Origin: a virus
Taxonomy: Duplodnaviria > Heunggongvirae > Uroviricota > Caudoviricetes
Length of the DNA stretch: 64,000 bases
IMG/VR virus record: IMGVR_UViG_3300037471_001733
Coordinates: 22,201 to 86,200 of that record
Strand: one strand, 5' to 3'
The notes under the pieces were generated by a model, which was not told where the DNA came from, searched no databases, and saw only the letters and a program-made list of their open reading frames with translations. The position numbers and the translations under genes were made by a program. This document shows, one piece after another, positions 117-64,000 of the stretch. Positions within the stretch are counted from its first letter, which is position 1; every line of letters begins with the position of its first letter.

Positions 117-650
117 TCAGCTAATTGATGCGACCGTGCCGTCGCTGTTGTAGGTCCACGTCTGCAGCGTCACGCTGCCGCTCGTGACGGTGGAGACTTT
201 CTTTTTGCCGTTAACGGTGGTGTAGTTGACCGTGTAGGTCACGCCGTTGACGGTGTACGTCGCAACGGATTTGTCCGAGTTGTACGTATAGGTTGCGCCG
301 CTATTGATGATCCCCAGCAGCTTCAAATCGGCGGCATTGGTCGTCACCGAGAACCGCTTGGTGCCAGCTGAGAAATTGACCGGCAGCGTGGCGCTGCTAC
401 CGGACTGAGGCGATGTGCGCTCAAACGTATCGCCGCCGAGATACGTTCCCTCGCCGGTCTCCCACTGTCCGGTCGGCTGGTAGTTGGCATCCACGGCCTC
501 ATAGCGGTACGGGATGCGCGCGTTTACCGCAGCAACCGATTGCAGCGTGCGACGGCCCGGGAAAGGCGTCGTGGGGGACAGCGTGACGTTGCCAGTGCCG
601 GTACTTGTGCTCGTCTGAGCCACCGCGTCATGGAATTCCTTGATCGGCAT
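117..650 (-). CDS. Hypothetical virion (neck/tail-proximal) protein
   Basis: 177-aa ORF directly downstream of the head-tail adaptor gene in the structural operon; T/S/G-rich; no motif recognised. Confidence 0.4.
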   Translation of the reverse strand: MPIKEFHDAVAQTSTSTGTGNVTLSPTTPFPGRRTLQSVAAVNARIPYRYEAVDANYQPTGQWETGEGTYLGGDTFERTSPQSGSSATLPVNFSAGTKRFSVTTNAADLKLLGIINSGATYTYNSDKSVATYTVNGVTYTVNYTTVNGKKKVSTVTSGSVTLQTWTYNSDGTVASIS

Positions 651-654
651 GTGT

Positions 655-1017
655 TCAGCTCTTCAGGTTCGTGTTCTCACAAGCCAGGTCGATGAACGCC
701 CTGTCGGAAGTCGGCATGACGGCGCGGATGTCGTAAGGCCTGCCGTCAATGAGCAATCGCATCCCGGCGTCAATACCGGTGCGATGTCGGATGCGCACGG
801 ACGCGCGCACCGTGGAGAGATCTGCGCCGCCCTTCACAGCCTCAAGGCCGTTGACGTGACGCACGTCAGCCCAAAGCCGCGCGATCTCGGTCCAATCGCC
901 GACGACCTCCTGGCCGAAGTCGTCCTTTCCGCTGGGACGCTGTTGCAACGTCACCCGGAAGTTGAAGGCGCCGGCACCCATTAGCCGTAGACCTTGAATG
1001 GTTCCAGCAGTCCGCAC
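655..1017 (-). CDS. Head-tail adaptor / head closure protein (SPP1 gp16-like family, tentative)
   Basis: 120-aa ORF overlapping the gp6-like gene; expected size, position and loose sequence resemblance to phage head-tail joining proteins. Confidence 0.45.
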   Translation of the reverse strand: MRTAGTIQGLRLMGAGAFNFRVTLQQRPSGKDDFGQEVVGDWTEIARLWADVRHVNGLEAVKGGADLSTVRASVRIRHRTGIDAGMRLLIDGRPYDIRAVMPTSDRAFIDLACENTNLKS

Positions 1018-1550
1018 AGATACGGCAGCGCCGTCATCTGCTTGCCTGCAACAGCCTCACGGTTCGCATAGAAGGCGCCGACGTGCAGCAAGATCCACTG
1101 TCGAATGGACTGCGGCACATCTGCGGGGCTGGACCCGAAACCGGCGACGTAGCGCACGCGCACCGTGTTGATTTCGGCGCGCGTCGTCGGCCATGCCTTC
1201 TCGAAGGCTGGCACTAGGTATGCCGGCGACACGTCGTTGCTGTTGTCTAGAACGTAGTCCGCAGGGTCCAGCGTGGCTAGCACGCCGTCCTCATCCACGT
1301 ACTGCAGCGACTCGACGCCCAGCACCCTGGGCCACTCCAGGCGCAGCGCCTCGCCGAATGCGTCCGTCGTCATCTGCCACGTTGTGCTGATGAGCGTGCG
1401 CTGCATCTGGCCTTCGGCAAGTTGCCGAGCGGCGGTTATGAGGCCGCCTATCAGCAAGTCCTCTTCGTCGTGATCGACTCGAAGGTGCAGCTTTGCCTCT
1501 GCGACGCTCACCGGTTCGGTGGTCGCATCCACGAGCTTTACGGTTGACAT
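981..1550 (-). CDS. gp6-like head-tail connector protein (Phage_connect_1-like)
   Basis: 189 aa; N-terminal VSVAEAKLHLRVDHDEEDLLIGGLITAARQ is characteristic of the phage gp6-like connector/DNA-packaging family. Confidence 0.55.
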   Translation of the reverse strand: MSTVKLVDATTEPVSVAEAKLHLRVDHDEEDLLIGGLITAARQLAEGQMQRTLISTTWQMTTDAFGEALRLEWPRVLGVESLQYVDEDGVLATLDPADYVLDNSNDVSPAYLVPAFEKAWPTTRAEINTVRVRYVAGFGSSPADVPQSIRQWILLHVGAFYANREAVAGKQMTALPYLCGLLEPFKVYG

Positions 1551-1553
1551 GCG

Positions 1554-3239
1554 CTACCTTCTTGGACGCTTCGTGTCGTTCAGACGTGGCGCGAAGCCGC
1601 TGCCGCTCGGAGCGCGGCGATATACCTGCGTCGTGTAGACATAAGCCGACAGTGCCGACTGCTGCGTCGCAGCACGCACTACCACTGCACTCAGAGGCGC
1701 CGAGGCAGAGGCTGCATTGACCACGACGGCCGTGACCGGAACGCTGGCGTTCTGAGCAACCTGCACGATCGTGCTCAGGTCTATCGACGTGCTCACGGGG
1801 TGGCTGGCGTCGATGTAGGCGCTCAGGCCAGAAACAGCCTCTGGCTGGCTCAGAACCCCGACACTGAGACCCGCGCTGCGGGTCATGGTGTCAAGCACCG
1901 CAGCACTGACATCAGCAGCCGCCGTGACGCTGACGGCCTCCATGACCATCAGCGACAAGCCGGCCTGCGTCGACTGTGCCGCCGCGATCACGACGTCAAG
2001 CGCCGTCTCCACCGCCTGCTCAACACTCAGTGCCGCACTCAGCGCGGCCTCGACGGCTTGGGTGACCGATACAGGAACTGACAGCTCTGCCTGGAGCAGC
2101 ATCGGCACGTTGATGCAGACATCCAGCGCTGCCGACGTGACCGGCTGATCAAGAACCGCTACCGAGACCTCGGCAAAAGCTTCAACGGGCGTTTCAATCG
2201 CCGCCGACATCTCCACCGTCAACTCGGGGATGGAGTGGATCTGCAGCGACAGATCGGCCGCTAGGGTGTTGCTGAAGAGCACACCGACGCTGAAGGGGAA
2301 ACTTACCTCCGCGTTGGACACCCGGCTGAAAACCGGCATGCCAACCTGCTCGTGCGCGTAAGTCGCCGCCCAGCCGATGTCGGCCGACCAGGCCAGCGGC
2401 AGCCCTTCGTCATAGAACGGGGTGCCAGGCGTCTGCGGCGGCACCGCACCGAGGCCGCCGAGTTCCAGCACTGCGAGACTGCGGAAGCCGGCGTCCTGTC
2501 GGATGTAGACGCTCAGCCCAGTGTTGGCTGAACGCGCCTCCAGCACTGCTGCGGACAACAGCACCTCTGCCGAGCGCGGCTCGTACACGCTGACCGACAG
2601 CGCTGCATCCAGCGAGGCGCTGCGCTGGTTGAACGCCGGCTGCACACCAAGGGGCTGGTATGCATAGATCGCCGACCAGCCGATGTCCGAGGCCCACGCT
2701 TGCGGAAGGCCCTCATCGTTGGCCGGAACCCGCGGCGTCTGCGGCGGCGCTGCTGAGATGCCGCCGGCTTCAAGTAGCGCCAGGCCGCGGAAACCGCTGG
2801 CCGTGGTGACGATCTGCGCGCTCAGTTCGGCGCTGTTCGTGCGCGCGGCCTGCACCGGCGCCGACAGCGGCGCCGACACAGAGCCGGCCTGCTGGACCGC
2901 TACGGACAGCGCCGCATCAGCCTTGGAGACCGGGACGCTGATTGCGCTAAGGCCGCCAGCCTCCAGCAACGCCAGGCCACGGAAACCGCCTTGCCGAATG
3001 TAGACGCTCAGCGGCGCGCTGAGGGTCACGCCCGTGCGCGGCGCGCTGATGCCGCCCAGCTCCAACAGCGCAACACTGCGCCAGCCGCCGTCCAGACGTA
3101 CCAGCGCGCTCAGCGGCGCGCTGGCCGTGGGCTTTGTGCTGACGGCTACCGAGAGCCCAGCCGAGGTGGTGCGCCCGGGGCCGAGCGCACTGACGCCACC
3201 CAGCTCTGGTAGCGCCAGCGAGCGAAAACCGCCCGCCAC
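1554..3239 (-). CDS. Repeat-rich virion protein: five GFRxLALLExGG repeats, then an A/V/S-rich C-terminal half
   Basis: 561-aa ORF in the structural operon. Interspersed imperfect DNA repeats (core GCCAGGCCACGGAAACCGCC) at about 2455, 2770, 2965, 3065, 3190. Confidence 0.5.
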   Translation of the reverse strand: MAGGFRSLALPELGGVSALGPGRTTSAGLSVAVSTKPTASAPLSALVRLDGGWRSVALLELGGISAPRTGVTLSAPLSVYIRQGGFRGLALLEAGGLSAISVPVSKADAALSVAVQQAGSVSAPLSAPVQAARTNSAELSAQIVTTASGFRGLALLEAGGISAAPPQTPRVPANDEGLPQAWASDIGWSAIYAYQPLGVQPAFNQRSASLDAALSVSVYEPRSAEVLLSAAVLEARSANTGLSVYIRQDAGFRSLAVLELGGLGAVPPQTPGTPFYDEGLPLAWSADIGWAATYAHEQVGMPVFSRVSNAEVSFPFSVGVLFSNTLAADLSLQIHSIPELTVEMSAAIETPVEAFAEVSVAVLDQPVTSAALDVCINVPMLLQAELSVPVSVTQAVEAALSAALSVEQAVETALDVVIAAAQSTQAGLSLMVMEAVSVTAAADVSAAVLDTMTRSAGLSVGVLSQPEAVSGLSAYIDASHPVSTSIDLSTIVQVAQNASVPVTAVVVNAASASAPLSAVVVRAATQQSALSAYVYTTQVYRRAPSGSGFAPRLNDTKRPRR

Positions 3240-3250
3240 AGTGGGCTACC

Positions 3251-3727
3251 TCAGGCGGCGCCGACGATGGGCACGGCCGCCGCGTCGGTGGTCAACGTCT
3301 GGGTGTACTGAGTCGTGGAGCCATCGGTCTTCTTGACCGTCAGCGTCGCGCCGGAAATGCTGAAGTCAGCGCGCAGGCCGGTGGTCTCAAGCCACTCGGT
3401 GCCTCCCACCAAGCTCTCGTACACGTTCGACGGAACGACCATGTAGTCATGCCACACGGGCAGCGCACCGGTTTCGTTCACTGCCACGCGCAAGCGGCCG
3501 AGAGTACCGGTGTCGGTGGCATTGATGGCCACGCTGTAGTAGCCGTTCTCCATGTGCGTTGCGGTAGTCGTTTCCGACTTTTGCGCGAAGGCTGCGGCGT
3601 TCTTGGACAGGCGGATCTTTGCTTGAGTCAGCGACAGAGCAGTCTCGGCCGTGAAACCATCGGTGCTGTCAACAAACGGACCGAGCACCAGCGTGGCGGC
3701 CGTGGATTGCTTGAGAAGAGTGCTCAT
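3251..3727 (-). CDS. Hypothetical structural protein
   Basis: 158-aa ORF, 12-bp gap to the next gene, co-oriented in the structural operon. Confidence 0.45.
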   Translation of the reverse strand: MSTLLKQSTAATLVLGPFVDSTDGFTAETALSLTQAKIRLSKNAAAFAQKSETTTATHMENGYYSVAINATDTGTLGRLRVAVNETGALPVWHDYMVVPSNVYESLVGGTEWLETTGLRADFSISGATLTVKKTDGSTTQYTQTLTTDAAAVPIVGAA

Positions 3728-4455
3728 TGCGCGGACCTCAGTCGGAATTGATGCATGGAACGAGGGGCCTGTGACTGGCTGCTGCCGGAGCCGAGAACTT
3801 CGATGGCGGCCAGCGTCCAGGTCTGTGAAGCGGGGGCCGTCATGCCAATCGCGTAGGTGCCAGTGGCGCCTGAATCGGCGTGGTAGCCGTGGTACACGCA
3901 GTACTCGTTGGCCAGTGTGTCGTTGTTCTGCGCAACGGCAGCAGTGCGCTGCGTGAACGTCCCGGCATTGCTGCGGTATGTCTGCGATGTCAACGCAGTG
4001 GCCGCACGGTCGCCGATGAACATCACCGCCGCCGAGTTGGCCCCGGTGGTCGTCAAGTTGACGGACGGAGCCGTGCCGGTACCGGAGCCAGAGACAACGG
4101 CACCGACGCCGCCAGCACTGCGGAACTGGTACGCCGTCGCGCCGAACACGATGCCATCGTCTCCTTCAGTGCCAGCGCCGCGCGAGACCGAGATCGTCAC
4201 GGACGCTGCCGTGGACGCAGTGGCGGTCCAGATGTAGAGCTCAGCGTGCGACGAGTCGACCGCGACGTCCGCGCGTTGCGTGTACGTGTTCGTCGCGCTG
4301 TCGCTAACGACTAGGCCGTCAATGTGCGATTTCAGGGTGCCAATGACGACGATCAGGTCGCCAACCTGCGTCGTGAGCGACATGGTCAGCGCGCTGCCGA
4401 AGGCCTGGGCCCATGTGCTCGTGTTTACGCTGGTGACAAAGGTTGGTGCTGCCAT
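3724..4455 (-). CDS. Hypothetical structural protein
   Basis: 243-aa ORF; ATGA overlap with the upstream gene; T/S/A-rich beta-like composition. Confidence 0.45.
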   Translation of the reverse strand: MAAPTFVTSVNTSTWAQAFGSALTMSLTTQVGDLIVVIGTLKSHIDGLVVSDSATNTYTQRADVAVDSSHAELYIWTATASTAASVTISVSRGAGTEGDDGIVFGATAYQFRSAGGVGAVVSGSGTGTAPSVNLTTTGANSAAVMFIGDRAATALTSQTYRSNAGTFTQRTAAVAQNNDTLANEYCVYHGYHADSGATGTYAIGMTAPASQTWTLAAIEVLGSGSSQSQAPRSMHQFRLRSAQ

Positions 4456-4457
4456 GG

Positions 4458-5933
4458 TCAGGTTCTCTGGTAAGCGCCGCGGGTCCAGTTGCCAGCCACG
4501 CGCGGGACGCCATCCATGTCGATGTCGTACGGCGCCGCCAAGTCGATGCCGGCCGCAAAGCTGGCGGTGCTGGCGATGTGGTAATCGGCGCCGGCGTAGT
4601 TCTTGAAGATGGACGTCGGCACGCTGAAAATTGCGTTCGTTCCGGAGCCGCTGTAACTCGTGTTCGAAAACGCGTTATGCGACACCACTGAACCGCTTCC
4701 GGCCGTGATGGAGCCGCCGCTACCGATCCAGAGGTTGTTGCGCACGGTGTTGCCGCTGCCGTCCGGGAACTGGATGCCGGCGTTTCCTTCGAGGCCGCGG
4801 ATGAACGTGTTGTTGACGATCACGCAGCCAGTGCCGTTGCCGCCGTTGGTCGGGTTGCCCAGGAAGCCGATGGCGGCATCGCCGACATAGAACGTGTCGA
4901 AGACATTGCCGTACACGAAGATCGCGGGCTTGCGGCTCTGCGAGCGGTTGACGGCCACGGCGATGAGCGCGGTGCCGCCGAGCCCAGACTGGTAGCTGTT
5001 GCGCCAGACGTTGTGCCGAATGACGGTGTCGAACACCGAGAAATACACGTTGACGATTTCGCCGTGGTGCGTGCCGTTGCTCCACGCGTTCTCGCAGGCG
5101 TTGTATTCGATCACGCAGCCATCGGTCTGACGGATGAAGAAGACGTTGCTGCTGCGGTTTATGTAGTTGCGACTGAAGACGATTCCCGTACCCTGAATGT
5201 CGTTCGAGTCTGTATCGAACGTGTACGGCCGGTAGTTGCTGTCGGTCTGCGGGCCAATGCCGTAGCAGTAGCAGCGCGTGATGGTGACGTTGTTGACGGC
5301 TGTGCCGCCGAAGCGGATGTTCTGGCCGCGGGCGTTGCCGCCGGGGCCGGTGGTCGTTCCGTTGCCGCCGGACGTCGAGTGGTCGATGCGGATGCCGTAG
5401 CTGTCGCCGTCGAACCAGTTCAACTCGTTGCGCGTGCCGCCGTCAATGATCCAGTTGCTCGTGTTGATGGTGATCGGTTCGAGCTGGCTGGTGAAGTACG
5501 CCTGGCCGGTGCCGAAGGAATCTGACCAGCCCTGGTTGGTGCCGTGATCCGAGATAGTGGCCTTCTTGATCGTGATGTAGAGCGATCCGTTCGTGGCCGT
5601 GCTCAGCGTGCGCGTGGTGTAGGTACCAGACTTCAGGTAGTACGTGAATCCGCGCTGAAAATTGACTGTGCTCCAGGGCGCCACGTTGTTCCAGTCATCC
5701 CCGGATTGGTCACCAGAGGGCAGCGGACCAACGTACTTGGCATTCGTCGGCGCCTGCGCCTGCTGATCGATCTGCATTGACAGGCCGGCAGATAGAAGCC
5801 GCTGGTACCGCAATGCGAGGGAAAGCGGGCCCGACGCAATGGCGGACGCCGGCTGCGCAAACGACTCCGATGGTCGCTTGCGCTGCGGTCGCCCCATGCC
5901 GGCGCGCACTGCAATGGGCCTGCTGTACGCCAT
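4458..5933 (-). CDS. Right-handed parallel beta-helix (pectate-lyase-like) protein; putative depolymerase or spike
   Basis: 491 aa; repeated NNxFxxG...GIxF...GNTVRNNxW-type coils (NNTFIRGLEGNAGIQFPDGSGNTVRNNLWIGSGG; RHNVWRNSYQSGLGG) typical of beta-helix glycosidase or tailspike domains. Confidence 0.6.
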   Translation of the reverse strand: MAYSRPIAVRAGMGRPQRKRPSESFAQPASAIASGPLSLALRYQRLLSAGLSMQIDQQAQAPTNAKYVGPLPSGDQSGDDWNNVAPWSTVNFQRGFTYYLKSGTYTTRTLSTATNGSLYITIKKATISDHGTNQGWSDSFGTGQAYFTSQLEPITINTSNWIIDGGTRNELNWFDGDSYGIRIDHSTSGGNGTTTGPGGNARGQNIRFGGTAVNNVTITRCYCYGIGPQTDSNYRPYTFDTDSNDIQGTGIVFSRNYINRSSNVFFIRQTDGCVIEYNACENAWSNGTHHGEIVNVYFSVFDTVIRHNVWRNSYQSGLGGTALIAVAVNRSQSRKPAIFVYGNVFDTFYVGDAAIGFLGNPTNGGNGTGCVIVNNTFIRGLEGNAGIQFPDGSGNTVRNNLWIGSGGSITAGSGSVVSHNAFSNTSYSGSGTNAIFSVPTSIFKNYAGADYHIASTASFAAGIDLAAPYDIDMDGVPRVAGNWTRGAYQRT

Positions 5934-5936
5934 GAC

Positions 5937-6380
5937 TCAGCCGTCGATCTCTTCGATCGCCAGGTTGATCGTCACGTTGCCCGTGCCGCTGGCACTGCGG
6001 ATGCTGACCTGGCCGCTGACAGGCACCGGGAACTCCCAGCCGGGCGCGGCGACGTACTTGTCGATGCCGCCGTTGGCGTTGGGGCCCATGCGCCACAGGA
6101 TTGCGCCGTCCAGCGTCGGGGCTGCGGCCCAGGTCGTATAGACGCTGAAGGACGCCGCTGCGCTGGACGGGTTCAGCTTGCTGGGCGTGATCGCGCCGCC
6201 GGGCGTCGTGCCTCCGGAACTGCGCTGCACCAGGATTTCGTTGACGGCCGATGCCGTGTCCATCCCTTTGATGTCGATGACGGTGATGCGCAACGGCTTG
6301 GTGGAACTGGCGACGATGGTGAGCAGGTCGGCCGTCGTGCTGAGCGTGGTGCGGGCACGCGAAACTGAGAAGAGAGGCAT
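5937..6380 (-). CDS. Hypothetical structural protein
   Basis: 147-aa ORF with a 3-bp gap to the beta-helix gene. Confidence 0.45.
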   Translation of the reverse strand: MPLFSVSRARTTLSTTADLLTIVASSTKPLRITVIDIKGMDTASAVNEILVQRSSGGTTPGGAITPSKLNPSSAAASFSVYTTWAAAPTLDGAILWRMGPNANGGIDKYVAAPGWEFPVPVSGQVSIRSASGTGNVTINLAIEEIDG

Positions 6381-6398
6381 TGCAGGTTCTCCAGAAGA

Positions 6399-6650
6399 TC
6401 AGGGCTGCAGGTCCTGGCGAGACACCACGACCGCCCCGCTTGCGCTATCCACGTAGACACGCACGCCGGCCAGTTCGACCACGACCCACTCGACGTTCGA
6501 CTGAGCCTCCGTCCCGACATCCCTGATGCCGCGGCGGCGGAAGATCGCGCCTTCGGTGTCATGGAGCGCGACACGGACGGAGCCGTTGGACGCTGCGCGC
6601 ATGCCGCTCTGTGCGTCTGCGTCGATTTCGAAGGGGATGGGCTGGGTCAT
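6399..6650 (-). CDS. Hypothetical protein
   Basis: 83-aa ORF in the structural operon, downstream of an intrinsic terminator. Confidence 0.4.
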   Translation of the reverse strand: MTQPIPFEIDADAQSGMRAASNGSVRVALHDTEGAIFRRRGIRDVGTEAQSNVEWVVVELAGVRVYVDSASGAVVVSRQDLQP

Positions 6651-6661
6651 GAGGTGTTGGC

Positions 6662-6690
6662 GCGAAAAAGCCGCCTCGTGGGCGGCTTGT
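6662..6690 (-). terminator. Rho-independent terminator after the 162-aa gene
   Basis: On the minus strand, GCCGCC-CACGA-GGCGGC hairpin followed by TTTTT. Confidence 0.55.
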
Positions 6691-6727
6691 TAGGTGATCC
6701 GTATCTGAGAGCGCTATTAGTTGCGCC

Positions 6728-7216
6728 TCAGACTTCATCCCAGGAAAAGTAGACGCTGTCACCTTGCGCGAGGCCGCCCGTCGCAGTCGACTGCACTTCG
6801 CACATCAGGACCAAGTGGTCGCCCTTTTCGCCAGTGCTCGTGTACGGGCCGGCGCCAAGACTCAGCGCGGAGCCGGACGTGTAGCCAAAGAAGTTGTTGT
6901 AGCCGGTGGTAGCCGTGGCCTCGGCCGGCGTGGCGTAGGTGGTCACGGCCTTTGCCCACAGCAGAACACCGGTGCCCAGGCTGTTGGTGCCGTCGGAGTA
7001 CGCCTTGATGCCGGTGATCTGCGAGTACGTGCCGCCGGTCACCTCCAGGCGCAACCACTTCTCATACGAGAAATCGCTGCCGCTGGTCGGCTTGACCATC
7101 GGGTTGTTCAGATCGACGGCGCTGTTGTCCGCATTTTTGAACCGGATGCCACTGGCCGCGTCCGTCGCGGTTGCACCGGCCCCATTTTTTTGCACGATGC
7201 GAGTCGTTGCGGCCAT
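6728..7216 (-). CDS. Hypothetical abundant virion protein (possible decoration or fibre)
   Basis: 162-aa ORF bracketed by intrinsic terminators. Confidence 0.5.
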   Translation of the reverse strand: MAATTRIVQKNGAGATATDAASGIRFKNADNSAVDLNNPMVKPTSGSDFSYEKWLRLEVTGGTYSQITGIKAYSDGTNSLGTGVLLWAKAVTTYATPAEATATTGYNNFFGYTSGSALSLGAGPYTSTGEKGDHLVLMCEVQSTATGGLAQGDSVYFSWDEV

Positions 7217-7276: not shown

Positions 7277-7714
7277 TTAGGCCGGCGTGCTAGCCGGGTG
7301 GCCCTTGATCACGTTCACGGCGATGGGCGTGCCAGCGCCGTGGGTGCCGCTGAAATCAGCGGTGACCTTCAGGTAACGGCGTTCGCCGATGTAGGCCACC
7401 TTGGCGACGGTGGCCGCAGCGTGAGCAGCGGTCAGCGAGCGCACGATGCCGCCGGTGCCCACGCTGGAGTCAGCGTTGGTCAGAAGGCGCACGTCATCAC
7501 TGGTCACGGCGGTGTACGTGGTGTCGTCCTTCGAGTGAGTCAGCAGGAACTCGATCTTGTTGGACGTGGTGAACGTGATGCCGCCGACGCCGACACCGAT
7601 GGAGACAACGGCGCTGTCGAAGCCCTTGAGATCAATGGCAGAGGAGGTCGTGTCGCTGGACAGCGTGGCGTTGAGCGCCGGCACGATGGAGATGTTGTTA
7701 GCGAGGTCTCGCAT
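7277..7714 (-). CDS. Hypothetical abundant virion protein (possible capsid decoration)
   Basis: 145-aa ORF immediately after the capsid gene, with a strong RBS and terminators on both sides. Confidence 0.5.
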   Translation of the reverse strand: MRDLANNISIVPALNATLSSDTTSSAIDLKGFDSAVVSIGVGVGGITFTTSNKIEFLLTHSKDDTTYTAVTSDDVRLLTNADSSVGTGGIVRSLTAAHAAATVAKVAYIGERRYLKVTADFSGTHGAGTPIAVNVIKGHPASTPA

Positions 7715-7785: not shown

Positions 7786-9033
7786 TCAGGACGCGGAAAT
7801 TTTGAGCTTCTTCATCGCGTCGCTCTGACGCACGCCGCCACCGACGCGCTTGCGGGCGCGGTACACCACGAGGCCGTTGTCGGCTTCGGTGATGTAATCG
7901 GCCTGGAAGCCCAGGCCGATGCGATCAACGATGGTGTATGCGCGCTTGAAGTCACCCCACAGCACCGGGTAGGCGCTGGCCGCGATGTCCGGAAGGTCAG
8001 GGAACTCAACGTACGGAGCGCCCAAGATCGTGTTCGCCACGGCGTTGGCGAAGCCAGGGGTCCAGAGGTAGTTGCCTTGGCCGTCCTTAAGCTTGCGGAT
8101 GTCACGGATGGTCTTGCGGTTCAGCGCGAACATCGCGTTGGCAGCGTAGGCCGTCTTCAGCTCGAACTGCAGGTTGATCAGGCCGTCAGACGTGATCTTG
8201 GTAGCGTCGCCGCTGACCACCTCACCGATGCCAGAGGCCACCAGCAGGCCCTCCATTTGCTGAGCGGCGGAGCCAACGCCGTTGATGGACTCGGCGCCTT
8301 CCTTCACGGCCATCTGCTCGGCGACTTCCATGCGCAGCTCGCCAAGGAGGTCGTAGTCCGAATCCTCCAACATCTGTTGCGACACGCGGTTGCGCGCGAA
8401 CATTTCCGGGGCCGTGATCTCGCCCATCCCATACTTGGGATCGGTCGTGTCCGTACGGGTCTCGATTTCACCGACGCGCTTGGCGCTGCCGGTGCCGACA
8501 CGCTTGGGCCACTTGTACGAGTGGCCGCCGATAATGCGCACGGTGGCGAGTCGACGGATGGGCGACTGCTCCACGATGTCCTTGAGGATCGCGCGCTCCA
8601 GATCCGGCGGGGCAAGCAGGTAGCCGGCGGACTGGTCGTCGCCCTTCACCAGAGACGCCATGTGCGTCTTGATGACCTGCATGTCCTCCAGCGAGCGGGC
8701 CTCATGGCGGGTGCGCATCACGCGGTTGAACGCGGCTTGCAGCTTGGCGTTCTCGGCGGCGGAGTCGGCAGCGGTGGAGCCGGGGCGCTGCAGCATGGTC
8801 TGGACTTGATCCAGTTGCTCCTGCATGGCCTTCGCAGCATTCTGCTGGGCCAGCAGTTGCTGGTTCATGTTCTCGTAGCGATCCAGCGTATCGCTGATCG
8901 CCTCGACCTTGGCAGTCAGGTCGCCAACGGCCTTGCCGTCAGCCTTGGCCGAGATGAGCTTGTCGTTGTGCTCACGCAGTTGCGTGACGGCTTCCATTAC
9001 TTCCTGGATGCCATCATTGGTGATGTTGGGCAT
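7786..9033 (-). CDS. Major capsid protein, HK97 family, with N-terminal delta (scaffold-like) coiled coil
   Basis: 415 aa; C-terminal LWTPGF...ILGAPYVEFPDL...GLGFQADYITEADNGLVVYRARKRVGGGV is typical of HK97-type capsid proteins. Confidence 0.85.
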   Translation of the reverse strand: MPNITNDGIQEVMEAVTQLREHNDKLISAKADGKAVGDLTAKVEAISDTLDRYENMNQQLLAQQNAAKAMQEQLDQVQTMLQRPGSTAADSAAENAKLQAAFNRVMRTRHEARSLEDMQVIKTHMASLVKGDDQSAGYLLAPPDLERAILKDIVEQSPIRRLATVRIIGGHSYKWPKRVGTGSAKRVGEIETRTDTTDPKYGMGEITAPEMFARNRVSQQMLEDSDYDLLGELRMEVAEQMAVKEGAESINGVGSAAQQMEGLLVASGIGEVVSGDATKITSDGLINLQFELKTAYAANAMFALNRKTIRDIRKLKDGQGNYLWTPGFANAVANTILGAPYVEFPDLPDIAASAYPVLWGDFKRAYTIVDRIGLGFQADYITEADNGLVVYRARKRVGGGVRQSDAMKKLKISAS

Positions 9034-14552: not shown

Positions 14553-15449
14553 CTATAACCCCAACTGCAGTTGACCAAGAGACTTGCTTCCCTTGGACCG
14601 GTTGCACCCAAAGCACTCGCACTGCGTGTTGCTATAGCTGTGTGGACCTCCATCGCGCAGGCTGACAACGTGACCAAGCTCCGGTGCGCCCTCAATCCTC
14701 TTGCCCATCTTCGACCTCGGCGTCTTAATGCCGCAAATCTTGCAGCGCCAGCCGTCGCGCTCAAAGACAGACAGCTTGTCCACCTTCTCGTACTCGCAGC
14801 CGAACTTTCTGGCGCGACGCCGATGCGTGGTGCCGCTAGTGGCTCTGTAACGGTAGCTCAGCTGACAGGCTATCGAGCAGTACTTTTGGCGCAGGTCGCC
14901 ATAGTCCGGCGTGAACGCAACTTCGCAGAAGCCGCACTTGCGAGGCGACCGGTCGCGGCTACGCTCTTGCTTCTTCCGATTGTAAACCTTGCTCCTGCAT
15001 TTGCTGCTACAGAAGTTCGCATCCGGCATCTTGGCCATGAAGTCGCGCCCGCAGGACGGGCTGGCGCAGACCCTGGCATAGCGCAGCTTATTCTGGCCGC
15101 GCTCCTTTTTCTCCGGCGCTGGAACGCACTCATAGCAGAACTTGCGCGGCTTGCCGTTCTTAAATAGTGGCTTTGGGTGGCGGCAGCCGTTTTCATTCCG
15201 GGTCCTGCACTCGTCGGAGCAATGACTGCGGCGCAGCTTCGTCGGCTTGAAGGGCATTCCACAGTAGGCGCATAACCGCGGCGGTTTCGGAGGCACGGGC
15301 GGATTCTTCCGTGGTCGTCCAGCGCCAGGACGGCGGCCGCCAGAGTTTGGACGCGGGCCACCGCGCTTTGAACGCGACGCCTCGACCAGTGCGCATAGCG
15401 CGCCTTTGCAGCCGCCAACAGACAGCCGCCTATACTCGCCTTCAACCAT
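14553..15449 (-). CDS. HNH endonuclease with N-terminal Arg/Pro-rich multi-zinc-finger region
   Basis: 298 aa; many CxxC pairs, then C-terminal GWRCKICG...ELGHVVSLRDGGPHSYSNTQCECFGCNRSKG (HNH); RBS AGGAAG. Confidence 0.7.
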   Translation of the reverse strand: MVEGEYRRLSVGGCKGALCALVEASRSKRGGPRPNSGGRRPGAGRPRKNPPVPPKPPRLCAYCGMPFKPTKLRRSHCSDECRTRNENGCRHPKPLFKNGKPRKFCYECVPAPEKKERGQNKLRYARVCASPSCGRDFMAKMPDANFCSSKCRSKVYNRKKQERSRDRSPRKCGFCEVAFTPDYGDLRQKYCSIACQLSYRYRATSGTTHRRRARKFGCEYEKVDKLSVFERDGWRCKICGIKTPRSKMGKRIEGAPELGHVVSLRDGGPHSYSNTQCECFGCNRSKGSKSLGQLQLGL

Positions 15450-20340: not shown

Positions 20341-20453
20341 CCCCTTCCGGCGCACTCGCAAGGGTGCGCATTGCGATGCAGCCACGCGGAAGCATCGCAA
20401 TGCGCCAGCGCGCATAACGGCGCCGTCCCGGCTTGAGGCGGCAGGAGATTCAG

Positions 20454-22262
20454 ATGTCAGCACAAGACTTGATTGTTAGGATCAACGCAGCCGCCCAGGT
20501 GGCCCCGGAGCAACTGCCCAAAGGGGCGCAGCCGCGCGACCACATGATTGCCTTTGAGTACACCGACGCCCACGGCACGCGCGGCTGCATGCGCATCCTG
20601 AACACCCGGGCGCGGCTGCTGGCCTTCGCTGAGCAGGTGCGGAAGAACGCGGCAGCATTCGACGGCAAGCCGCGCAGCAAGCCCGCCGGGCCGCGCAAGA
20701 TTGCCGGCGCATCCCCGCTTTCCACGGCGCGCGCACTGCTCAAGGATGGCGCGCGGGTTGAAGCCCTCGCAGCGCTTGAGGCGCGCGGCGGGGAGGTGTT
20801 TTTCGGCGCCGCTGGCGTGCCTGTGCTGCATCAGGTTGCACAGCGCGTGGAGCACGAGGGCCGCCGCTGGGTTGTCACGCGCTGCGCCGTTGATGGTCTC
20901 ATCTACCTCATTCACGAGGCGTCCGGGCTGTCAGCAGGCGGCAAGGGCTTGCCTGAGATGCGCAGCATTGCGGATGCCCTGGCGCGGCTTGAGCTCGTGC
21001 ACCGGGACGAGGCGGAAAACGGCTACCGGCAGCGAATGATTGCTGCGATCGAGCAAGCGGCGGATTACGACCAGCAGGCGGCGCGCGCGGCTTTCGAGGC
21101 GTGCGATGGTCTCAAGAGCAAGGATGCCGCGCCGGTGGCTCAGGAAGCGTACCAGCAGGCGCGCGCGCTGTCGGCGGCGCAGGTGGCGCCCGATGTCGAG
21201 CCGGCAGTAGATGCAGACCCCTCCCCGGTGGAAAGCGAAGCCGAGGCGGCACCCCCTGTAGCGGAAACGCCTGCGGCAGCTGACACCCCTGCAGCGGAAA
21301 TCGAGTCCAGCGCGCCGGCGGTTGCGCCAGCATCCCCTCCGGCGGATTCACAGGCAGGCGCTGCACCCCCTGCGATGGAAAGCGCGCAGCCTGCGCCGCT
21401 TGCCACCGCGCCAGGCCGATCGGATGCGCTCATCGCGCGGGCCATCGCTTGGGTTGCCGTAGTCTGGGGAACCGCCAGCGTGCCGAGCGTTGCGGACTAC
21501 CGCGCCGGCCGGTGCGATGACACATTCCCGTGGGCGGGCGGCAGCCGCGCCGCCGGCTATCTGACATGGGCCGACCTCATTGGCGAGTGCATGGCCGCGC
21601 TGGAGCGCGACGACAGCGCCGACCAGGCGGCACGAGACGCCGCACTGCAACCACCGACCCCCATCCGTAGGAAAGGCCCGCGACAACATGAGCAGCACAC
21701 CCCATCCCGTGCAACCCGCAGTGCCAACCGGCCGCGAGTGGTGGACCCGCGGGCTGCTCGACTGGCACGCCGAGGCGCTGCACGCCGCCCAGGAGATCGC
21801 CGCGCTGCGCGAATCACTGGCTGCGGAGCGCGCAATGGTCCGCGAGCTGCAGGAGGCGCTCGCTGCCCGCCGGCAGGCCGCTTGACCCCTTCCCGGGGAA
21901 TCACGGCGCCACAAGCTTGCCGCCCCTGGCGCGACGCCAGCGAAACCCGAGACTGCACCCATAAAAACCTGGAGCACAGCATGACCTACACCGAAGCCAT
22001 CCAAGCCCTGCGCGACGCTATTGCGCAGGCCCCGAAGGGTGAAAAGCTGCAAGCCTTCCAAGCCAAGCGGGAGAAGATAATAGGGGCAATGCCCAAGGTG
22101 GAAATCTGTGGCGGCGAGCAGTGCATCCGCTATCCCAAGGGCTACCGCTTTGACTGCGGTCGCGAGGTCCACACGGACTGGATGTGGCAACCGTTTGCCA
22201 GCGAGGAAATCGCCATGCGGCCTGGCAACCTGCCGTACATCCTGCGCATGCCGGCTGCCTGA
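20454..22262 (+). CDS. Large ORF with acidic Pro/Ala-rich repeat linker; the 3' third is doubtful (possible frameshift or composite of two or three genes)
   Basis: No stop from 20454 to 22262, but 21650-21980 translates as Arg-rich low-complexity while another frame gives a coiled-coil ORF (21688-21885); a separate RBS plus ATG at 21981 starts a Cys-containing C-terminal domain. Confidence 0.35.
   Translation: MSAQDLIVRINAAAQVAPEQLPKGAQPRDHMIAFEYTDAHGTRGCMRILNTRARLLAFAEQVRKNAAAFDGKPRSKPAGPRKIAGASPLSTARALLKDGARVEALAALEARGGEVFFGAAGVPVLHQVAQRVEHEGRRWVVTRCAVDGLIYLIHEASGLSAGGKGLPEMRSIADALARLELVHRDEAENGYRQRMIAAIEQAADYDQQAARAAFEACDGLKSKDAAPVAQEAYQQARALSAAQVAPDVEPAVDADPSPVESEAEAAPPVAETPAAADTPAAEIESSAPAVAPASPPADSQAGAAPPAMESAQPAPLATAPGRSDALIARAIAWVAVVWGTASVPSVADYRAGRCDDTFPWAGGSRAAGYLTWADLIGECMAALERDDSADQAARDAALQPPTPIRRKGPRQHEQHTPSRATRSANRPRVVDPRAARLARRGAARRPGDRRAARITGCGARNGPRAAGGARCPPAGRLTPSRGITAPQACRPWRDASETRDCTHKNLEHSMTYTEAIQALRDAIAQAPKGEKLQAFQAKREKIIGAMPKVEICGGEQCIRYPKGYRFDCGREVHTDWMWQPFASEEIAMRPGNLPYILRMPAA
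21688..21885 (+). CDS. Alternative-frame 65-aa coiled-coil ORF inside the large ORF
   Basis: RBS AGGAAAGG; MSSTPHPVQPAVPTGREWWTRGLLDWHAEALHAAQEIAALRESLAAERAMVRELQEALAARRQAA. Confidence 0.3.
   Translation: MSSTPHPVQPAVPTGREWWTRGLLDWHAEALHAAQEIAALRESLAAERAMVRELQEALAARRQAA
21981..22262 (+). CDS. Possible independent 93-aa Cys-containing protein (same frame as the large ORF)
   Basis: RBS TGGAG 6 nt before the ATG; CGGEQC...DCGREVH. Confidence 0.35.
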   Translation: MTYTEAIQALRDAIAQAPKGEKLQAFQAKREKIIGAMPKVEICGGEQCIRYPKGYRFDCGREVHTDWMWQPFASEEIAMRPGNLPYILRMPAA

Positions 22263-63559: not shown

Positions 63560-64000
63560 TCAAGTCGGGAAGGCGGTGTGCTCCACGCCATCCAGCAGGC
63601 GGCCGGCGGCCTTCTTGCCAACGTGGATTGCCGTGTCGCCGTCAGGCAGCGAGCGGCAGCGCACGGTCGGCCCGTAGACCTGGGCCAGCCGCTGCACTTC
63701 GCTCGCATCGCTGCCAGCACCCAGCCATTCTCCCCACTGCTTGAACAGGAACGGCACGCCGGCAGCTGCGCATTGGTCGCGCAGATCTCGGGCCCACTGC
63801 AGGTGCATCGGCCGCGCCTTCGGGCCGCTCTCGCCGCCGACGATGACCCAGCTGATGAGCGACAGCATCGCGGCGCTGGCACCGCTCTCCCCCCAGGGGC
63901 GCACTGTCCGCCGCAGGTCTACCGGTCCCAGCAGAGGCTCCATGGACAGGAACCGCACGCGCGCTGGCGTGGCCAGCAGCTTCGGCGCGTCGCGGTCGGC
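63560..64000 (-). CDS. Phage Gp37/Gp68-family protein (partial; N-terminus beyond the window)
   Basis: EPLLGPVDL...WVIVGGESGPKARPMHLQWARDLRDQCAAAGVPFLFKQWG. Confidence 0.6.
   Translation of the reverse strand, partial: ADRDAPKLLATPARVRFLSMEPLLGPVDLRRTVRPWGESGASAAMLSLISWVIVGGESGPKARPMHLQWARDLRDQCAAAGVPFLFKQWGEWLGAGSDASEVQRLAQVYGPTVRCRSLPDGDTAIHVGKKAAGRLLDGVEHTAFPT

Follow-up and report, generated by a model that had tools for sequence, protein, structure and literature searches.

A 14-residue repeat protein in a mobile head-cluster cassette of tailed phages, a candidate subunit of an accessory capsid or neck appendage

In modular or branched receptor-binding systems, such as gp63.1/gp66 of phage G7C, TSP1-4 of phage CBA120, and those of the multi-depolymerase Klebsiella phages, conserved docking peptides or domains are combined with exchangeable enzymatic or binding domains, and swaps between genes that lie side by side leave the anchors intact. 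Capsid fibres, for example those of phi29 (gp8.5) and of the flagellotropic phages 7-7-1 and phiCbK, are accessory fibrous appendages that look non-essential, are encoded with or near head genes, and are thought to aid the first contact with the host. The capsid fibre proteins of phage 7-7-1 are still unidentified (PMC12796354), hence the gene families for such fibres remain open, while phi29 gp8.5 is described as a helix-turn-helix supercoil in a reference cited in the same article. Capsid decoration proteins, such as T4 Hoc, T5 pb10, and phage L Dec, are also accessory, are encoded beside the capsid gene, and can mediate adhesion, each being a single small protein of Ig-like or OB fold matched to one capsid lattice (reviewed in PMC7602432). 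The present analysis concerns a 561-amino-acid (aa) protein, hereafter the target, encoded on the minus strand of a 64,000-nucleotide stretch of tailed-phage DNA (positions 22,201 to 86,200 of the IMG/VR record IMGVR_UViG_3300037471_001733; the whole stretch is referred to as the window), together with the gene cassette in which it lies, which is marked by a protein designated p162.

The cassette resembles each of these systems in part. Like the genes of capsid fibres it lies near head genes, but the 14-residue beta repeat of the target is unlike phi29 gp8.5, and the target, which has no sequence relation to deposited phages, is only a candidate for attachment to the capsid. With the modular receptor-binding systems it shares conserved terminal peptides, exchangeable partners, and adjacent genes that are swapped around intact anchors; those systems, however, are tail-borne and encoded in tail modules, whereas the cassette was always found in head clusters and had no homology to their anchor domains in Pfam and PHROGs. 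In contrast to the single decoration proteins, whose accessory nature and role in adhesion are also proposed for the cassette, it comprises at least seven genes, and its marker p162 is near-identical across unrelated capsids. The reading tentatively favoured here is that the target may be a non-enzymatic, repeat-built shaft or hub subunit of an accessory capsid or neck surface appendage encoded by a horizontally mobile cassette, with its gene position in head clusters and its partners of carbohydrate-binding or beta-helix type suggesting a location in the virion.

The target is a real, conserved coding gene under purifying selection. As the initial annotation had reported, an open reading frame (ORF) of 561 aa occupies positions 1554..3239 (minus strand); it has a GTG start, a TAG stop, and a GAGG Shine-Dalgarno-like motif 9 nt 5' of the GTG. 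Its GC content by codon position (0.78 at third and 0.54 at second positions) follows the pattern of the neighbouring genes. A search of 5.8 billion proteins identified two homologs, 74% and 58% identical, in the same JGI metagenome and with the same gene neighbours, and four more IMG/VR loci together contributed one additional variant of approximately 67% identity. Among the four distinct homologs (the window, L001, L002, and L003), the pairwise ratio of nonsynonymous to synonymous substitution rates (dN/dS, or omega) was 0.21-0.52, and the motifs of the target were kept despite synonymous codon change. L001, L002, and L003 all share the N-terminus VAGGFRSLALPELGG with the target. The deposited gene call of the L002 homolog (P0002; L002 4017-4154) is 46 codons short, and the real GTG start restores the VAGGFRSLALPELGG N-terminus. 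The gene had also been described as tightly packed between two structural genes. The packing was confirmed, as the target is separated by 11 nt from the gene before it and by 3 nt, measured between the stop of the target and the next ATG, from the downstream gp6-like head-tail adaptor, but only the latter, a member of PF05135, is recognised as structural.

The building block of the target is a 14-residue repeat, and GFR strands punctuate short arrays of it. Autocorrelation of the protein peaked at lag 14 (z = 7.5 overall and 8.7 in aa 340-545) and at lag 102 (z = 7.6), and the sequence falls into a clear register when arranged in rows of 14. A parse with a position-specific scoring matrix identified 22 units, whereas 200 shuffles yielded 0.4 on average and never more than 3. 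The consensus of the unit is (L/V)-S-(V/A)-x-(V/I)-x-x-x-x-x-x-S-A-x. The initial annotation had instead described five GFR repeats spaced by approximately 55 aa and a low-complexity C-terminal half rich in Ala, Val, and Ser. Exactly five matches to the pattern G[FW]R[GS][LV]A[LV][LP]E[AL]GG were indeed found, at aa 4, 52, 85, 149, and 251, but their spacing is 48, 33, 64, and 102 aa. The composition also agreed, with A, S, V, and L as the four most frequent residues of the whole protein (together 293 of 561), while the supposed low-complexity region proved to be a strict 14-residue array, and a 102-aa internal duplication had been overlooked. Finally, the GFR repeats were expected to be mirrored by DNA repeats, whereas the core GCCAGGCC(A/G)CGGAAACCGCC occurs once exactly, twice with at most two mismatches, and three times with at most four, which is a weak signal. 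The five motif-coding 36-mers are only 61-83% identical, so that the motif is maintained by selection at the protein level rather than by recent DNA duplication, and Tandem Repeats Finder reported nothing relevant in the target.

The N-terminal half of the protein consists of runs of two to four 14-mer units, each closing with a Tyr/Ile-rich strand (e.g. LSVYIRQ) that is followed by GG and a GFR motif (all coordinates are on the minus strand). Motif 1 (GFRSLALPELGG; aa 4-15, 3195..3230) is at the extreme N-terminus, motif 2 (GWRSVALLELGG; aa 52-63, 3051..3086) is invariant in alignment A1, and motif 3 (GFRGLALLEAGG; aa 85-96, 2952..2987) is preceded by an LSVYIRQ strand; motifs 1 and 3 were identified by motif match. 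A short array (aa 97-148, 2796..2951), with units at aa 111, 125, and 139 and a weaker one at aa 97, leads to motif 4 (aa 149-160, 2760..2795), which opens duplicated unit A. It is followed by the first aromatic module, or W module (aa 161-207, 2619..2759; PPQTP..DEGLPQAW..DIGW..YAYQPLGVQP..R), which has the lowest omega of the gene (0.06-0.13), and by a second short array (aa 208-250, 2490..2618) with units at aa 214, 228, and 242 and an LSVYIRQ end. Motif 5 (aa 251-262, 2454..2489) then opens duplicated unit B with the second aromatic module (aa 263-309, 2313..2453). As seen in alignment A3, motifs 4 and 5 each head such a module of approximately 47 aa, PPQTP..(Y)D(D/E)G(L/V)P..W..D(I/L)GW..YA..Q..G. 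The 102-aa duplication, in which 39 of 102 residues are identical between aa 149-250 and aa 251-352, corresponds to the aromatic module plus its three-unit array. The main array (aa 316-543, 1611..2294) contains 16 contiguous units, is broken by nothing except two 2-residue insertions, and is followed by a conserved basic C-terminal tail of 18 residues (APSGSGFAPRLNDTKRPRR; aa 544-561, 1557..1610).

Conservation differs along the protein. Residues 1-312 are 45-91% identical to the homologs, where identity to L001 and L003 is 69-91% with an omega of 0.06-0.26, and L002 is more divergent (45-86%); the segment aa 208-262 is an exception to the low values of this half, with an omega of 0.52 against L002. 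The main array, predicted to be a beta-solenoid, is the variable part, with homolog identity of 32-70% and an omega of 0.14-0.65. The C-terminal tail, identified by homolog comparison, is 100% identical in L001, and the homolog in the Azohydromonas lata prophage, while 31-44% identical overall, has exactly the same last 23 residues. At 1557-1562 (minus strand), the rare codons AGA AGG encode the last two Arg residues of the target and also form the Shine-Dalgarno of the adaptor gene 6 nt downstream, so that conservation of the C-terminal RR may partly reflect translational coupling and not protein function.

The 14-mer array likely folds as a beta-solenoid, as judged from structural modelling. 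An AlphaFold model of aa 313-545, built from an alignment of 12 sequences that included eleven remote arrays, was all-beta with strand breaks every ~14 or ~28 residues (pLDDT 69, pTM 0.61). The 14-mer units show an i/i+2/i+4 hydrophobic pattern and frequent Pro and Val, which argue for beta strands rather than a coiled coil; on these features and the all-beta model, a coiled coil was rejected as the cause of the 14-residue period. Among known proteins, the YadA head, with its Hep_Hag repeats, and the ryegrass ice-binding protein are 14-residue beta-rolls. The target shares the tandem period with the YadA head (z of 8.7 at lag 14; 22 units), but it has no Pfam Hep_Hag match, its consensus is (L/V)S(V/A)x(V/I)...SAx rather than NSVAIG-S, and it is encoded in a phage head cluster and not in the context of a trimeric autotransporter. 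The best fold match, for a fold that depends on the pLDDT-69 model, was curli CsgA. With these short-coil proteins the target shares short tandem repeats rich in small residues (A/S/V/T/G) and the inward-facing alternation L-x-(V/A)-x-(V/I). It has, however, no match to Pfam Curlin_rpt, whose repeats carry a Q/N ladder, or to any other Pfam repeat family, and no csg genes, autotransporter anchor, or obvious signal peptide (its N-terminus is MAGGFRSL), and its neighbours are phage genes. An NHL or "Pizza" beta-propeller was also considered and rejected; it arose from a single marginal match among PDB sequences, to the designed Pizza6 at aa 46-121 (per-domain independent E-value 1.3-25).

The gene order p162-p83-p147-p491-p243-p158-target-adaptor is common to L001-L006, to a diverged prophage of Azohydromonas aeria (L013/L018), and to a prophage of A. 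lata NBRC 102462 (L014/L093; contig NZ_BCTC01000054.1, cassette at approximately 8.2-14.9 kb of L093). In the window, where all of these genes are on the minus strand, the cassette is opened by the highly conserved marker p162 (6728..7216), followed by the conserved proteins p83 (6399..6650), which adjoins p162 in 75 of 80 loci, and p147 (5937..6380), with 59-93% identity. The next two proteins are swappable. The first, p491 (4458..5933), has the look of a parallel beta-helix and is 91% identical in L003 but only 28-32% in L002, L013, and L014; the second, p243 (3724..4455), is a globular partner with a conserved C-terminal peptide. Directly upstream of the target lies p158 (3251..3727), a conserved partner with no assigned function; its counterparts in L001-L003 share 90% identity with it, and that of the A. 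lata prophage 72%. Within p491, a basic N-terminus (GMGRPQRKRP) and two 14-mer-like units at aa ~35-60 (PLSLALRYQRLLSAGLSMQIDQQ) precede the repeats of beta-helix appearance, and no family was found for it in Pfam, PHROGs, NCBIfam, or PDB sequences.

Comparisons between loci revealed both the mobility and the mosaicism of the cassette. Between the window (3251-7216) and L003 (6032-9992), the proteins from p162 to p158 are 90-95% identical, with 77% for p83, while the adaptor is 67% identical, the portal 30%, and the capsid protein has no match. A near-identical cassette beside unrelated portal and capsid genes indicates a recent horizontal transfer of the whole cassette between head modules. 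In L002 and L014, other proteins take the place of p491 and p243 (28-30% identity or no match), whereas p162, p147, and p158 remain 72-90% identical, and the last 34-39 residues of p243 are kept in both loci at 54-68% identity. An extra 147-aa protein of L013 carries 14-mer-like units at its N-terminus. Additionally, p243 aligned with the globular domains that are fused before arrays in other proteins (hhalign probability 93.5%, E 2.2e-7, 186 columns), a relation that was significant only between profiles and not by BLASTP. Such a fusion, in the manner of a Rosetta stone, suggests a functional tie between p243 and the target.

The marker p162 was found in at least 109 IMG/VR loci (57-94% identity) and in 14 species-representative genomes, which included Azohydromonas isolates and metagenome-assembled genomes labelled Rhodoferax, Accumulibacter, Nitrosomonadales, Rickettsiales, Rhodospirillales, Kiloniellales, and Acidobacteria. 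A class of p162-linked 14-mer arrays was defined as arrays of 14-residue (L/V)S(A/V)x(V/I) units within ~5 kb of the p162/p83 pair on the same strand. A hidden Markov model (HMM) of the array matched the target, which has p162 3.5 kb upstream on the same strand, with an E-value of 1e-71, placing it in this class. Of the 37 loci with at least 6 kb downstream of p162, 35 contain an ORF that the same model matched on the strand of p162, at -2 to +4.7 kb from it, while only the target matched in a 156 kb control of 1038 six-frame ORFs that included the whole GC-rich window. The p162-linked array proteins range from 239 to at least 878 aa, start with short LLLxxG-type strands or large globular domains, and many end in Arg-rich sequences such as RRPRA, KRPRR, and IKPRR.

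The head module of the window is of the HK97 type, with small and large terminase, portal, ClpP-like protease, and capsid genes, then eight unannotated genes, the adaptor, and a head-closure protein. The major capsid protein (7786..9033, minus strand; phrog_10, E 6.7e-67) and the adaptor (Ad1; 981..1550, minus strand; PF05135, phrog_442) flank the unannotated genes. In every locus with annotatable flanks the cassette is inside the head-gene cluster, although its position within the cluster varies: in the window, L003, L013, L014, L064, and L072 it is placed between capsid gene and adaptor, and in L085 and L029 it directly follows the portal and precedes a protease-capsid fusion. Among ten diverse loci, the gene immediately upstream of p162 encodes a portal in seven (from four PHROG families), a large terminase in one, and an endolysin in one; the gene immediately after the array protein encodes an adaptor or joining protein in four of the ten, a head protein in one, and a tail fibre PHROG in one.

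That the target has no recognisable family, as stated in the initial annotation, was borne out by every search. Pfam (even at E-values up to 10), PHROGs, and NCBIfam returned no family and no tail-fibre, tailspike, or repeat profile, and PDB sequences gave none; PADLOC gave no match for nine proteins (the target, p158, p243, p491, p147, p83, p162, p145, and p177). No match was found by tblastn against 50,697 deposited phage genomes for the target, nor against deposited phages for P0009, P0012, p491, and p162, and megablast of the first 12 kb of the window also returned none. PDB profile searches with the array, the module, p243-like domains, and p162 yielded nothing, as did a search of the loci with P0005 and a contig scan with the target. 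The closest cultured relative by capsid protein (38% identity), Rhizobium phage RHph_X2_25, does not carry the cassette.

When 1.84 billion cluster representatives were scanned exhaustively with HMMER, remote relatives emerged, 33 proteins at E <= 1e-3 but only four at E <= 1e-10. These relatives divide the target into two separable modules, the GFR strand with the aromatic module, which recurs in eight proteins, and the 14-mer array, which recurs in approximately 20 proteins behind globular N-terminal domains, including a Laminin_G_3 lectin fold in P0009. That domain aside, the relatives bearing array or module have no family of their own. Word-indexed searches with the array and module alignments returned two proteins each, as low-complexity words saturated the candidate list. 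Two of these proteins, P0037 and P0038 (108-132 aa), represent the GFR/aromatic module as a stand-alone protein amid Laminin_G_3 and SASA genes on podovirus-like contigs. P0038 (108 aa) is encoded two genes upstream of a 2350-aa polyvalent protein (LPD1, ART-PolyVal) on a 65-kb contig (L009 10001-18363). No description of the 14-residue repeat or of the cassette was found in the literature searched. The resources queried describe neither the 14-mer repeat family nor the GFR/aromatic module nor the p162-linked cassette, while a repeat-built fibrous or solenoid accessory protein is familiar as a kind.

If the target is a shaft or hub subunit of a capsid or neck appendage, the 14-mer array would be exposed on the particle as a beta-solenoid rod or slab, and the conserved N-terminal half and the terminal peptides would serve as assembly interfaces. 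These interfaces would tie the variable parts, that is, the lectin-like or beta-helix partners and the array, to a conserved core of p162, p83, p147, and p158, and the complete structure would, in the manner of head fibres and branched receptor-binding systems, mediate reversible adsorption or bind glycans. A conserved anchor half with a fast-evolving distal half, swapped partners with persistent terminal peptides, lectin- and beta-helix-like partners, and a stable repeat fold together are the signature of a modular virion adhesion system, and the constant placement in head clusters beside unrelated head genes points to a head or neck appendage rather than a tail fibre.

Several observations weigh against this interpretation. 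The array model is of medium confidence and monomeric, the AlphaFold model of the full-length protein (3-sequence alignment) has a pLDDT of 33.7 and is unusable, and Foldseek searches against PDB, with the full-length model, and against BFVD returned nothing significant. The cassette genes were not found in cultured phages (tblastn of the target, p491, and p162 against deposited phages). The 57-94% identity of p162 across phages whose capsid proteins are not detectably related is odd for a specific binder of a capsid lattice, one p158 relative adjoins tail-fibre-like genes and not head genes, and the Arg-rich terminal tails could equally suggest contact with DNA inside the head.

A more far-reaching version of the appendage model, which must be regarded as rather doubtful, is that the cassette from p162 and p83 to the array protein is a self-contained, portable "plug-in" system that mounts exchangeable glycan-binding or glycan-cutting modules on heads or necks with unrelated capsids. 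The 14-residue repeat and the LLExGG strands would then form a universal beta-strand docking code, the conserved terminal peptides would be connectors, and its five docking strands would make the target a branching hub.

An ordinary tail fibre or receptor-binding protein at the tail tip or baseplate, the gene of which merely lies in the head-neck region, is an unlikely alternative that would account for the conserved N-terminus and variable C-terminus, a combination typical of tail fibres. Some of the gene neighbourhoods agree with it. The only deposited-phage homolog of p158 (PP496355) is encoded towards the end of a phage-like block of genes, shortly before a lysin gene, and follows an 849-aa protein with a beta-helix and a ConA-like, lectin-looking part by eye; P0037 and P0038 occur amid Laminin_G_3 and SASA genes; and a tail fibre PHROG follows the array protein in one of the ten sampled loci. 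However, the cassette is within the head cluster in every locus examined, either after the portal or between capsid and adaptor, across at least four unrelated portal families, and in L003 it lies upstream of the neck and tail-tube genes (the visible region ends at the tape-measure region). Neither Pfam nor PHROGs gave a tail-fibre family match.

Among the options offered by the initial annotation (fibre shaft, internal protein, or adhesin), an internal protein is the least supported. On this reading, which is considered quite improbable, the target would reside inside the head, either as such or as a polyprotein that the prohead protease cleaves at LLE|xGG into fragments packaged with the DNA and possibly ejected, and the Arg-rich tails would contact DNA. 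The head-cluster position, often right after the portal, is where MuF or SPP1 gp7-type proteins are encoded, basic terminal tails recur across the array-protein family, and L-x-E resembles the sites of T4-type prohead proteases. The putative LxE Glu, however, is not conserved, as the A. lata homolog has GLRSLALPGLGG and GIRSPLLLALGG and P0037/P0038 have LPSLGLLGGLG, which weakens this explanation; a double-glycine leader or ubiquitin-like cleavage at LxGG was rejected because the hydrophobic and Glu positions do not fit and the Glu is not conserved. A stable beta-solenoid would be poorly suited to passage through the tail channel, and the lectin- and beta-helix-like domains of partners and relatives make little sense within a capsid. 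Two related array proteins matched an Hdf-like PHROG, but these matches are marginal (E ~0.003-0.007) and fall on compositionally biased arrays.

Just as improbable is a moron or accessory system expressed with the late genes, of which the target would be a non-virion component such as a cell-surface or amyloid-like product or an exclusion or anti-defence factor. The extreme conservation of p162 irrespective of capsid type, the mobility of the cassette, and the fold match to curli CsgA are in line with such a role. In contrast, the target starts directly with a GFR motif and shows no obvious signal peptide or membrane segment by eye, it is tightly coupled in translation to same-strand morphogenesis genes, the cassette proteins had no PADLOC match, and the cassette is always in head clusters and not at typical moron sites. 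Lastly, although many long spurious ORFs are expected in high-GC DNA and the target is rich in Ala, Ser, and Val, an artefactual ORF of biased composition is counted as already refuted by the neighbour-like codon-position GC, the syntenic homologs at 58-74% identity with dN/dS below 0.55, and the survival of the motifs through synonymous change.

Other features of the window were noted around and beyond the cassette. The 145-aa gene that follows the capsid gene (7277-7714, minus strand; phrog_5707 of unknown function, E 1e-13) has no match in L003 and just 37-40% identity in L013/L014, which places it outside the mobile cassette. A second unannotated insertion follows the head-closure gene (window 117-650, minus strand; L003 12615-16536) and opens with a 177/180-aa protein with the N-terminus TGTGN.TL. 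In L003 it continues with proteins of 123, 181, and 815 aa, the last carrying SWM_repeat and Big_13 Ig-like domains, and tail-completion genes come next; this insertion may be a second appendage set. An HNH endonuclease gene (14553-15449, minus strand) shares the strand of the small-terminase gene and precedes it by approximately 600 nt, an arrangement known from HNH-assisted cos packaging. A 609-aa ORF (20433-22262, plus strand) without a PHROG match occupies the most GC-rich stretch of the window (69% at 20-22 kb vs. ~63% elsewhere). A 132-aa ORF (63560-63958, minus strand) resembles phage Gp37/Gp68 (DUF5131) by eye, and the far end of the window is non-structural, so that the tail genes must lie beyond coordinate 1 and the window is not a complete permuted genome.

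Head and neck accessory fibres affect adsorption, host range, and environmental adherence, and the genes for many of them are still unknown. The cassette is invisible to annotation resources, yet its presence in prophages of culturable Azohydromonas strains, such as A. lata NBRC 102462 and A. aeria CFCC 13393, makes it experimentally reachable. The 14-residue repeat would represent a new sequence family among short-coil beta-solenoids. If the plug-in model were true, the cassette would constitute a previously unrecognised and widespread class of virion appendage and a candidate source of the unidentified capsid fibres seen by electron microscopy on some phages, and docking across unrelated capsids would serve phage display and host-range engineering.

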